Of a DNA stretch of 64,000 bases, positions 14,232 to 64,000 are shown in pieces. The notes under the pieces are model-generated. The model made no database searches. It was not told the origin of the DNA and worked only from the letters and a program-made list of their open reading frames with translations. The stretch spans positions 32,001 through 96,000 of the forward strand of contig JAPDJW010000001.1 in NCBI GenBank assembly GCA_029258885.1. Reading direction: 5' to 3'. The position numbers were made by a program, and so were the translations under genes. Source of the stretch: Thermoproteota archaeon (GTDB lineage Archaea > Thermoproteota > Thermoprotei > Thermofilales > B9-G17). Every line of letters begins with the position of its first letter. The first letter of the stretch is position 1.

Positions 14232-14316
14232 GCGGGGGTGGCCGAGCAAGGTCAAAGGCGCCGGACTCAGGCTCCGGTGGCGTAGGCCTGCGTGGGTTCG
14301 AATCCCACCCCCCGCA
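14232..14316 (+). tRNA. tRNA-Leu(CAG)
   Basis: GCGGGGG/CCCCCGC acceptor, CCGGA-CTCAGGC-TCCGG anticodon arm, long variable arm, GTTCGAATC T-loop. Confidence 0.97.
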
Positions 14317-14319
14317 TGT

Positions 14320-14380
14320 AGGGATGATCGATCAGAGTTAAGATGAACTCTTGTGATGATTAAAAGGCATTTGGGTGACC
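14320..14380 (+). ncRNA. Box C/D guide sRNA targeting 23S rRNA H69/H71
   Basis: C-like GGGATGA 14321-14327, D' ATGA 14343-14346, C' GTGATGA 14353-14359, D GTGA 14375-14378; guides complementary to 39437-39445 and 39460-39470. Confidence 0.9.
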
Positions 14381-14452
14381 AATTCTCCATCTAAGATAGG
14401 CTACTTTACTTGTGTAGCCAGAAACATATAGCTTTAACAATTAGGAACGGGG

Positions 14453-14758
14453 GTAAGCCGGCTATAGCCCGCTTTCTGTACTTGGGGGATTTATCTTGGA
14501 CCTCGGCCTCTACACGGGGATATCATCCGACCGAGGCCTGCTACAGGTTGGCCGTTTCACCCACTCCTTTAACATCGTCTGCGGGTTAGCTCGTCCCCCG
14601 TTACCGGAGAGACTTCGCCGCGGTCATTCTCATCTGTTAAAGGGGGTCTCGTTTCTGATCCAGAGCCAGGGCTCTCGCCCTACCGCCTTACGGCGGTTGT
14701 AGCCCCCGTGTAAGCGGAGCTTCCTCCGGGCGAACCCGGGCACCCCCAGCCGGCTTAC
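14453..14758 (-). ncRNA. rnpB: RNase P RNA (full length, type A-like)
   Basis: 11-bp terminal P1 helix GTAAGCCGGCT/AGCCGGCTTAC, GAGGAAGCTCC, CAGAAAC, GGGTGAAACGG and ACAGAAAGCGGGCTA conserved regions. Confidence 0.95.
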
Positions 14759-14831: not shown

Positions 14832-15341
14832 ATGCGAAGCAAGATCTATATAACAGTCATAGGCAGTAGTAAAGATATTTCTCCTAAGGTTTACGAACTG
14901 GCTGAGAAGGTTGGTTTTGAAATAGCGAAAAGAGGTGCAATTTTAGTTTGCGGCGGCAGAGGCGGAGTGATGGAGGCCGTAGCTAAGGGGGCAAGAATAG
15001 CTGGTGGCATAACTGTTGGTATATTACCAGGCGTAAGCAGAGGGGAAGCGAATCAATACATAGATATAGTAATACCTACTGGCATGGGACACGGGAGAAA
15101 TTTTCTGAATATAGTGGCTGGAGATGGCGTTATAGCTATATCTGGCGGTGCTGGCACGTTATCAGAAATTGGTCTGGCTATTGCCTATGGAAAGCCAGTT
15201 GTAGTCATCAAAGGGAGCGGAGGAGTAGCCGACCTATTGGCGGGAAAGAATATAGGTGGTACGTATATAGATTTTGCTCACACTCCTGAAGAGGCTGTGG
15301 AAAAGCTAATTAGCTTGATTAAACTCAACCAAAATAGATGA
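14832..15341 (+). CDS. LOG-family (TIGR00725-like) protein
   Basis: CGGRGGVMEAVAKGA, TVGILPG, RNFLN, GGAGTLSEI. Confidence 0.88.
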   Translation: MRSKIYITVIGSSKDISPKVYELAEKVGFEIAKRGAILVCGGRGGVMEAVAKGARIAGGITVGILPGVSRGEANQYIDIVIPTGMGHGRNFLNIVAGDGVIAISGGAGTLSEIGLAIAYGKPVVVIKGSGGVADLLAGKNIGGTYIDFAHTPEEAVEKLISLIKLNQNR

Positions 15342-15390
15342 TGAAAAGCGGGCTTAAATGATTAATGACTGAGCCTGCATCGGCTGATGA
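15336..15390 (+). ncRNA. Box C/D guide sRNA targeting 16S rRNA helix 25 region
   Basis: C ATGATGA 15338-15344, D' ATGA 15358-15361, C'-like TTAATGA 15362-15368, D CTGA 15384-15387; guides complementary to 36511-36520 and 36454-36464. Confidence 0.9.
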
Positions 15391-35301: not shown

Positions 35302-35376
35302 GGGCCCGTAGCTTAGCCTGGCCGGAGCATCCGGCTGATAACCGGAAGGTCGTGGGTTCGAATCCCACCGGGCCCA
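35302..35376 (+). tRNA. tRNA-Ile(GAT)
   Basis: GGGCCCG/CGGGCCC acceptor, TCCGG-CTGATAA-CCGGA anticodon arm, GTTCGAATC. Confidence 0.97.
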
Positions 35377-35454
35377 CCTCCTTACAAATAACAGTTAAAT
35401 AGAAGGACTCCCACCCCACCTATTTTCACATAAAAGTAGAGTAAACAATATAAG

Positions 35455-35475
35455 GAGGAAAAAGGATTTATATAA
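35455..35475 (+). promoter_or_regulatory. Putative rRNA operon promoter (BRE plus TATA box)
   Basis: Purine-rich stretch followed by TTTATATA at 35467-35474, just before the GC-rich structured leader. Confidence 0.7.
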
Positions 35476-35626
35476 TGCCCCGCAACCCTCCGGCGGCCCA
35501 GTCAGATAGGGGCGTATCGCTCCGAAATGAAAGACTGGCCTCCGGTTGCGGGGAAAGCCTCACACTCACGATGTGGATCTAAGCAACCCAGCCCTAGAGA
35601 AGGGGGCTGGACGCTTAGATCCGAAA

Positions 35627-37213
<1,587 letters not shown>

Positions 37214-37271
37214 CATGTAATGCAACCCGGGAGGTAACCTCTCGGGTGAAGGGCACGAATTCTAAAGATGT

Positions 37272-40496
<3,225 letters not shown>

Positions 40497-50803: not shown

Positions 50804-50913
50804 GATACTTTTATGCTCACTAGAGTAATATATAGCTTTTCATACACGCTAAAAACTATGAAACAGTCTCTATAGGTGGAAACATTTAACTATTTCCTAT
50901 GGACTTATATTAT

Positions 50914-51010
50914 GGGCCCGTGGCCTAGTGGAAAAGGCGGCGAGTTTTCCCGTAAGCCTGCGGATAGTGTAGAAAGCCGCAGAGCGTGGGTTCGAGTCCC
51001 ACCGGGCCCA
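50914..51010 (+). tRNA. tRNA-Arg(GCG) with two introns (29/30 and 37/38)
   Basis: Removing 50943-50955 and 50964-50974 gives GCGGC-CTGCGGA-GCCGC in a 73-nt cloverleaf; both introns form BHB-like motifs. Confidence 0.9.
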
Positions 51011-51119
51011 TTTCATCATTAATGATATGCTTTTGATGAATATGTTCTACAAAGATTTAGCGAACGACATTGGCGAGGAAAAGTTTATTGGCAACGCCGA
51101 ATTTTACATTTTGGTTGCT

Positions 51120-62971: not shown

Positions 62972-64000
62972 TCAGCGATTATTCCTTATCTTCACTACCT
63001 CCTTCTCAAGAATAGTTATACTCTCTGTCAGTTTCATAACATGTTTTTCAAGGGCCTCTAATCTTAGATTAAGTTCTTTCATATCACTCTCTTCTGCTGA
63101 TGTCCTCTTTTTTCTGTCAACGAATCTCAGCTTGTTTTTCGTACTTTCTAGGTACGGTTCTCTTTCTATAGCTTTCGGTATGTATATTTTTCTAAGTTTG
63201 CCGTCCTTCAATACTAATGCTTCTCCTACCCTCAAGTCTAGGGGATTTATATTATAGTTACTAGGCAATCCCATGCTTTCTATTTCCTTTCCGTGAAGTC
63301 GATGCATTACAACTATTCTAGAGTTTTTTATTATACTTTTAGCGGTTTCGCTGGGGAATTGAGATACGGCGATAATTAACTCGCCGAATTTCCTTAGTTC
63401 AGCAAATATTCTTTCACCAATGCTGGGTTGTGAATCCAGTCGTCGATAGGGAATAATGTTCCATGCCTCTTCTATTACAGTAGCATGCAACACCTTATTT
63501 GATATGGGACGTAAATGTGAGGCATAATCGTATAGTAGTTTGAGAAGTATTAAAACGAAGAGTTTCCTCGAGTAGATGCTTCTAAATACGCTCAGATCAA
63601 TCAATACATTCTCTTCAAAGAGTACGTTTACATCATATCCACCGCCAAATGCCTTTCCTGCTCTTCCCTCGCTAAGGCTACTTAGCCTTCTCCTAAGCGC
63701 CATTTTAATTTCATTATCATAAAAACTTCTTATGGGTAACCTCTCTATAACATGAAGCAACTCGCGTATAGTCGGCTCTCCATATTTGTTAAATGCCTCT
63801 GTTAATGCAACTTTTAACATATACTTTTGCGGCTCAGATAGCTTATATACGTCGCCGAAAAGATCCACTAAAAACTCTATGTGCTCCGTTAAGTCACCAT
63901 ATGCCTTATAGAGCGGATTTATAGCAAAGTTCTCACCCGGAATTAAGACCTTAAAGAAATTAGAAACATATGGATAATACTCTCCATGCCAGTCGAGCAC
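62972..64000 (-). CDS. C-terminal part of a HerA/FtsK/VirB4-superfamily ATPase, gene starts beyond the window
   Basis: Walker B VIEEA, ELRKFG, VSQFPS; frame open to the window edge; coiled-coil-like tail. Confidence 0.8.
   Translation of the reverse strand: MLDWHGEYYPYVSNFFKVLIPGENFAINPLYKAYGDLTEHIEFLVDLFGDVYKLSEPQKYMLKVALTEAFNKYGEPTIRELLHVIERLPIRSFYDNEIKMALRRRLSSLSEGRAGKAFGGGYDVNVLFEENVLIDLSVFRSIYSRKLFVLILLKLLYDYASHLRPISNKVLHATVIEEAWNIIPYRRLDSQPSIGERIFAELRKFGELIIAVSQFPSETAKSIIKNSRIVVMHRLHGKEIESMGLPSNYNINPLDLRVGEALVLKDGKLRKIYIPKAIEREPYLESTKNKLRFVDRKKRTSAEESDMKELNLRLEALEKHVMKLTESITILEKEVVKIRNNR

Follow-up and report, generated by a model that had tools for sequence, protein, structure and literature searches.

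Immediately downstream of a tRNA-Leu(CAG) gene, positions 14320-14380 of the window (the whole 64,000-nucleotide stretch of archaeal DNA analysed here) had been read as an unannotated box C/D sRNA, both guides of which would target the helix 69 to 71 region of 23S rRNA. This raises the question whether such a short element, with boxes that deviate from the consensus, encodes a genuine guide RNA and, if so, which nucleotides it would direct to methylation. With a probability of about 0.8, the results presented below indicate that a genuine box C/D sRNA of the archaeal type, a methylation guide with two guide sequences, is encoded at 14317-14380 on the forward strand. The span first proposed stands as the core of this RNA, and was extended to 14317-14380 from a proposed RNase Z cut.

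Layout of the locus and its targets on 23S rRNA

The features of the locus and the two rRNA stretches with which it would pair are the following:

14232-14316, + strand: tRNA-Leu(CAG) (ARAGORN; Rfam tRNA, 58.7 bits), the likely co-transcription partner of the sRNA
14317-14380, + strand: box C/D sRNA, bounded by the proposed RNase Z cut behind the tRNA and by the last base of the terminal stem (family model R1; weak match to the Rfam sR11 layout)
14321-14322, + strand: GG, which forms the short terminal stem together with CC at 14379-14380 and is its 5' strand (from the sequence)
14324-14330, + strand: box C, AUGAUCG, which falls into the box C columns of the alignment of 50 family members
14331-14342, + strand: D' guide, 12 nt, of which 14332-14340 pair with 23S rRNA 39437-39445; core invariant in the family
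14343-14346, + strand: box D', AUGA, aligning with the CUGA/AUGA D' boxes of relatives
14356-14362, + strand: box C', AUGAUUA (from the sequence); relatives have C' directly before a 12-nt guide
14363-14374, + strand: D guide, 12 nt, of which 14364-14374 pair with 23S rRNA 39460-39470; family-invariant AAGGCATT
14375-14378, + strand: box D, GUGA, the G1 of which pairs with C6 of box C (flipped stem II pair)
14379-14380, + strand: 3' half of the terminal stem, CC (from the sequence)
39437-39445, + strand: stretch of the helix 69 loop in 23S rRNA to which the D' guide would pair, with 2'-O-methylation predicted at A39439 (E. coli A1913)
39460-39470, + strand: stretch of 23S rRNA to which the D guide would pair, 25 nt further downstream, with 2'-O-methylation predicted at A39464 (E. 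coli A1938)

Box C agrees with the consensus RUGAUGA at five of seven positions and has its UGA core; AUGAUCG and GUGA together retain the UGA/GA core that is required for a K-turn. The elements required for a K-loop are also present: box D' can be combined either with AUGAUUA or with an overlapping, perfect GUGAUGA (14353-14359). The latter choice of C' gives a spacer of 15 nt up to box D, whereas AUGAUUA gives a D guide of 12 nt; the spacer between boxes C and D' is 12 nt long. The terminal stem consists here of only 2 bp (GG/CC), with a single spacer nucleotide between GG and box C, and the homologous stem of the family has 6 bp. Within the D' guide, AGAGUU (14334-14339) is complementary to AACUCU (14347-14352) in the spacer between D' and C', which thereby mimics the rRNA target. 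This pairing forms part of the minimum-free-energy fold of the sRNA (-14.1 kcal/mol); it is not kept in the closest relatives, the spacers of which are shorter.

The base pairing proposed in the sequence-only reading was found to be exact. Guide TCAGAGTTA (14332-14340) is the reverse complement of TAACTCTGA (39437-39445; 9 bp), and guide AAGGCATTTGG (14364-14374) that of CCAAATGCCTT (39460-39470; 11 bp). Counting upstream from D' and D, the fifth guide nucleotide pairs with A39439 and A39464, respectively, the two adenosines to which the N+5 rule had been taken to point. Their equivalence to E. coli A1913 and A1938, made by hand before, was reproduced by an ungapped alignment to the annotated E. 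coli 23S gene. Both targets are located inside the Rfam-called archaeal LSU rRNA (37313-40455). Yeast Psi2258 and Psi2260 correspond to E. coli m3Psi1915 and Psi1917, respectively (PMC2794176), which places yeast Am2256 at A1913. By this numbering and the same 25-nt offset, Am2256 (snR63) corresponds to A1913 and Am2281 (snR13) to A1938, in agreement with the equivalences given in the sequence-only reading.

The rRNA region as a whole occupies 35302-40455 on the + strand, with a tRNA-Ile(GAT) gene about 300 nt upstream of the 16S gene. Rfam called the archaeal 16S at 35677-37174 and the archaeal 23S at 37313-40455; the 138 nt between them contain no spacer tRNA, and no 5S gene was found after the 23S gene within the window.

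How often such matches arise by chance was estimated in two ways. When background 12-mers of the window were evaluated over the N+5 position, 3.7% reached at least 9 bp and 0.12% at least 11 bp, and 11-mer complements to rRNA alone are common (about 80 in the window). The layout C-guide-D'-C'-guide-D with both guides of at least 9 bp, on the other hand, was present once in the real window and in 0 of 300 random windows generated with a first-order Markov model. A lenient scan for the whole architecture returned two window elements with an rRNA-matching guide, 14317-14380 and 15338-15387.

The second of these elements (+ strand) is composed of ATGATGA, a 13-nt guide, ATGA, TTA, ATGACTG, a 12-nt guide and CTGA. 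Its D' guide matches 16S rRNA over 10 bp with N+5 at 36515; for its D guide no perfect match of at least 8 bp was found. Complements of 11-12 nt to the same 23S region are also present at 63644-63655 (- strand) and 43725 (+ strand); these lack boxes and were taken as chance matches.

Family members, distribution and covariation

A BLAST search of 60 related genomes, with the 86-nt region as query, gave homologous RNAs with the same two guides; they come from several families of the window's order and class. A pattern scan of species genomes gave at least about 114 archaeal records among the at least 120 matches listed. The archaeal matches listed are mostly from Nitrososphaeria, and include Thermofilaceae/Infirmifilum, Methanomethylicus, Conexivisphaera and Bathyarchaeota; the sRNA sequences of two relatives are identical to Thermofilaceae and Infirmifilum records, which puts the organism of the window within Thermofilales or close to it. 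Six bacterial records of the pattern scan (L045, L049, L073, L075, L087 and L103), a number expected by chance, lack the D box and the stem. A partial BLAST match in one relative (L007 in G003), without a second guide or D box, was rejected as a homologue.

We defined the family by the joint presence, in a C/D RNA of roughly 65 nt, of TCAGAGTTA as D' guide and AAGGCATT as D guide, and refer to the corresponding model as R1. When 50 non-redundant members were aligned, only the GA nucleotides of the boxes and the two guide cores proved invariant, and the stem, spacer and box flanks vary. The 9-nt core of the D' guide is invariant in roughly 100 family members, with diverging flanks. R1 matched the window at 14316-14386 with 64.1 bits and an E-value of 2.4e-12, a score that is obtained partly by construction since the window sequence is among the 50 from which R1 was built. 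Its distribution was sampled with 151 genomes drawn evenly from the phylum and representing 78 genera: R1 matched 87 of these genomes and 46 of the genera, with a single match in nearly every genome. Matches were present in all 19 genomes sampled from one family (f15), and in none of the 13 genomes sampled from each of two others (f10 and f20). Three further families of the window's order gave matches. The window's own family is represented by one further genome (G001, 93% complete, 160 contigs), in which R1 had no match. Thus, the guides, whose conservation in relatives the sequence-only reading had left to a covariance search, proved invariant across a phylum-wide family.

On the target side, the A1938 stretch showed no variation among the 91 genomes of the phylum sample in which that part of the 23S gene is present. 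Covariation between guide and target is accordingly uninformative, and guides reading ATTAGG carry an A.A mismatch at position 3. Four of the five relatives picked for their variant guides lack an assembled 23S gene. The variant guide of relative G055 still pairs with the unchanged target by means of two G-U wobbles.

Rfam scans at gathering thresholds, performed for the window and for five canonical family members, gave no match to a C/D family, which shows that the family is not in Rfam 15. Scans by E-value gave sub-threshold layout matches to sR11 (14317-14379), sR15 and sR7, plus a guide match to SNORD15. The double-guide family of the sRNA is thus absent from Rfam, and its conservation is unusually wide.

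The alignment also bears on the deviating boxes. Pair counts of the K-turn model revealed compensatory changes at all 6 pairs of the terminal stem of the family. For the pair formed by position 6 of box C and position 1 of box D, the 50 members comprise 37 GC, 7 CG, 2 AU, 2 UA and 2 other combinations. Of the counted cells 84.5% were paired, versus 30-47% when the partner column was slid, and the observed covariation score was reached in 0 of 500 shuffles. Since the C6-D1 pair covaries, the combination AUGAUCG/GUGA is a stem II in which G-C has been flipped to C-G, and not a sign of decay. Box C AUGAUCG is also found in neighbouring families and in Methanomethylicus, where the D boxes start with G. 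In three members from Methanomethylicus and relatives (L051, L066 and L128) box D reads GAUA; their stems still covary, and the sheared A.G pair of the K-turn would become A.U in them.

Linkage to tRNA genes and proposed mode of action

Seven nucleotides separate the last base of tRNA-Leu(CAG) (14316) from box C (14324). A promoter would not fit into this interval, and co-transcription followed by release through RNase Z is therefore likely. A TATA-like AT-rich stretch is present upstream of the tRNA gene, and the sRNA is not followed by an oligo-T run. For Nanoarchaeum equitans tRNA-Val/sRNA8 an RNase Z cut has been proposed to create the 5' end of the sRNA, and plant tRNA-snoRNA genes have been cited as a parallel (PMC3491384). 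Joint transcription of tRNA-Leu and sRNA with RNase Z release appears the most economical reading of the present locus, and a likely one; the sRNA lies on the same strand and directly downstream, a geometry that fits a probable tRNA-Leu(CAG)/sRNA dicistron.

Linkage to tRNA genes is also found elsewhere in the family. At least 60 family loci have tRNA-Met(CAT) 41-250 nt upstream on the same strand, and in Infirmifilum an intron-containing tRNA-Leu(UAA) is located 92 nt upstream of the sRNA. In two class-level relatives (L013 and L014, from G046 and G055) the order is reversed, with tRNA-Gly(GCC) 42-45 nt downstream on the same strand, so that cleavage by RNase P could define the 3' side of the sRNA. 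Synteny is conserved in ammonia-oxidising Nitrososphaeria (e.g. L032, L033 and L050): tRNA-Met(CAT) precedes the sRNA by 41-52 nt on the same strand, and a divergent tRNA-Glu(TTC) is often present at a distance of about 0.8 kb.

Two other observations concern non-coding RNA genes of the window. The archaeal RNase P RNA (14453-14758, - strand; Rfam, 153 bits) converges on the sRNA, and the 70-nt gap between them contains the hairpin GGCTAC-N12-GTAGCC (14399-14422); tRNA-Leu, C/D sRNA and RNase P RNA thus form a small non-coding RNA cluster. At 50913-51011 (+ strand) ARAGORN called a tRNA with a four-base anticodon, for which Rfam tRNA gave 50.1 bits over 97 nt. An intron within the tRNA is the most likely explanation, rather than genuine quadruplet decoding.

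The proteins of a C/D RNP are encoded in the same genome: fibrillarin (PF01269, 324.9 bits) and Nop5 (PF01798, 253 bits) by adjacent genes, and L7Ae (PF01248, 108.5 bits). With these proteins, the full archaeal box C/D layout and the family-invariant guides, the interpretation of the locus as a double guide, as originally put forward, is supported at the level of sequence. We envisage that the sRNA would be produced as a 3' extension of the tRNA-Leu(CAG) transcript, that RNase Z cleavage at the 3' end of the tRNA would generate its 5' end, and that trimming up to the RNP would produce its 3' end. Boxes C and D would form the K-turn and boxes C' and D' the K-loop, to which L7Ae would bind, followed by Nop5 and fibrillarin. 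Pairing of the D guide with 39460-39470 would place A39464 (A1938) in the fibrillarin site, and pairing of the D' guide with the helix 69 loop (39437-39445) would do so for A39439 (A1913). The two sites are 25 nt apart, and the RNP would therefore probably also keep this part of domain IV in place while the 50S subunit is assembled.

The two guides differ in the computed strength of their duplexes. The AU-rich 9-bp duplex of the D' guide, with two unpaired nucleotides beside box D' (positions 1-2), has a computed dG of -11.8 kcal/mol at 37 C and -1.7 kcal/mol at 85 C, and the corresponding values for the D guide duplex are -16.8 and -4.1 kcal/mol. The rRNA has a GC content of 63-64.5% versus 40.7% for the window, which suggests a thermophile. 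It is conceivable, if unlikely, that the sRNA is real but that only its D guide directs methylation (of A1938), and that the helix 69 guide, too weak at growth temperature, makes a transient tether or chaperone contact or does nothing. Besides the low duplex stability at 85 C, the ability of the D' guide to pair internally with 14347-14352 and the chaperone role that has been proposed in the literature for double guides would fit such a division of labour. Against it speak the 9-nt core, which has stayed invariant while its flanks diverged, and the G055 guide, which retains its pairing through wobbles; in addition, short guide duplexes are stabilised by protein binding.

The register of methylation has to be considered as well. 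Among 104 unique members the spacer from box C to box D' is 13 nt long in 61, mainly Nitrososphaeria, for which strict application of N+5 points to A1912. It is 12 nt long in 36 members, including all those from the window's order and class in the set, and then points to A1913. Moreover, in an archaeal RNP structure the base-specific contacts of Nop5 are only to the C of box D and to the last GA of box C (PMC5389607). The three nucleotides that are replaced in the sRNA (positions 6-7 of box C and position 1 of box D) are precisely those contacted, and the register or efficiency of methylation could therefore differ. These observations open the way to a variant of the double-guide reading, which we consider improbable: the non-canonical D' and D boxes and the flipped stem II would alter Nop5 docking, such that the methylated nucleotides are shifted or doubled with respect to strict N+5 (A1912 instead of or together with A1913, and A1937 together with A1938). 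In yeast, the site is shifted or doubled when the first nucleotide of D' departs from the consensus (PMC5389607), and snR13 methylates both A2280 and A2281; in the sRNA, D' begins with A and D with G. The yeast results, however, concern the C'/D' motifs of eukaryotic snoRNPs and not archaeal terminal C/D motifs, and the uniform 12-nt spacer in the window's own order and class speaks for A1913. Due to the 9-bp D' duplex and the 13-nt spacer of most Nitrososphaeria members, the exact nucleotide in helix 69 is less certain than A1938.

Finally, it is very improbable that the 3' trailer of the tRNA resembles an sRNA by chance or contains one that has decayed to a pseudogene: the degenerate C and D boxes, the 2-bp stem, the lack of an own promoter and of an Rfam match above threshold would be compatible with this, but the box changes are compensatory and common to relatives and Methanomethylicus, both guides are intact, none of the random windows yielded the layout, and R1 scores 64 bits.

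Comparison with known systems

The arrangement of the locus resembles that of the N. equitans tRNA-Val/sRNA8 and plant tRNA-snoRNA dicistrons, in which a C/D RNA gene is likewise located immediately 3' of a tRNA gene. It differs from the N. equitans case in the tRNA, the sRNA and the lineage, and its processing is predicted. For the genome analysed here, the gain is a gene annotation that is probably missing and the probable tRNA-Leu/sRNA dicistron.

By position, the predicted target nucleotides are the same as those of eukaryotic snR13/SNORD15 (Am2280/2281) and snR63/SNORD46 (Am2256). SNORD15 (U15) is the vertebrate counterpart of snR13. In eukaryotes these are two separate and longer snoRNAs, in contrast to the one double guide in the window. 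The guide and D box of the Rfam SNORD15 consensus (GAGGCAUUUGUCUGA) align to 14354-14378 with 8.6 bits, compared to a gathering threshold of 75; so far below threshold, the match shows that the guides are alike, and does not imply family membership. No Rfam match of SNORD46 or snR63 to the window sRNA was obtained, and a paper with an Arabidopsis comparison contained no mapping of snR13 or snR63. The eukaryotic likeness is compatible both with common descent and with convergence on an invariant target. As the target nucleotides are shared, SNORD46/snR63 and SNORD15/snR13 might descend from an ancestral double guide that was split. The broader proposal, that an ancient, nearly always single-copy and often tRNA-linked Thermoproteota family gave rise to both eukaryotic guides and that the flipped stem II changes the register, for instance to A1937 plus A1938 as in yeast, is a speculation to which we give a low probability.

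According to the literature, precise methylation sites are generally not conserved between archaeal lineages, whereas hotspots are. The family described here is a counter-example: a double guide with invariant cores, in single copy, present in 46 of 78 sampled genera including Nitrososphaeria lineages. Its predicted target adenosines are located one at intersubunit bridge B2a and one beside it, and are methylated in yeast and reported to be conserved in human. This double guide is therefore a good candidate for probing the role of the two methyl groups in an archaeon. The family also offers natural variants of stem II, with all four Watson-Crick types at C6-D1, that could serve to test the need for the Nop5 contacts.

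Helices 68-71 are a published methylation hotspot, and double guides directed to nearby rRNA sites are the norm in archaea. Literature searches returned nothing specific on C/D sRNAs of Thaumarchaeota or on archaeal RiboMeth-seq at these sites. sRNAs carrying each of the two guides are, however, contained in the supplement of Dennis et al. 2015 (PMC4644070, Additional file 1), and we computed their targets from the rRNA segments printed there. Sac-sR125 of Sulfolobus acidocaldarius and IHOsR109 of Ignicoccus hospitalis are double guides whose D guide, A/GAAGGCATTTGT followed by CAGA/CTGA, is the same A1938-equivalent guide. Their D' guide is also directed to helix 69, but to its 5' strand, at the equivalent of G1906 and not of A1913. 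Unlike those of the window sRNA, their boxes are near-canonical. The box C most frequent in the family, AUGAAGA, is similar to theirs (A/GUGAAGA) and is that of Sac-sR125; this shared box suggests a common origin of Sac-sR125 and the family with a shifted D' guide. The families of the phylum without any R1 match may include Sulfolobus/Ignicoccus-type lineages.

The A1913 equivalent is targeted, with 10 bp, by the D guide of Sac-sR113 and IHOsR91 (ACTCAGAGTTACT and ATCAGAGTTACG, respectively, followed by CTGA). In these RNAs the helix 69 guide thus occupies the D position, and in the window sRNA the D' position. Its partner is an unrelated guide in Sac-sR113 and, by hand pairing, one for a helix 71 site near G1945 in IHOsR91. 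The reading as a predicted double guide for two sites that are methylated in eukaryotes is supported, but it is less new than it seemed, since both sites had already been predicted in Sulfolobus and Ignicoccus. Both are predicted archaeal methylation sites, and the combination of A1913 and A1938 in one RNA is what differs here.
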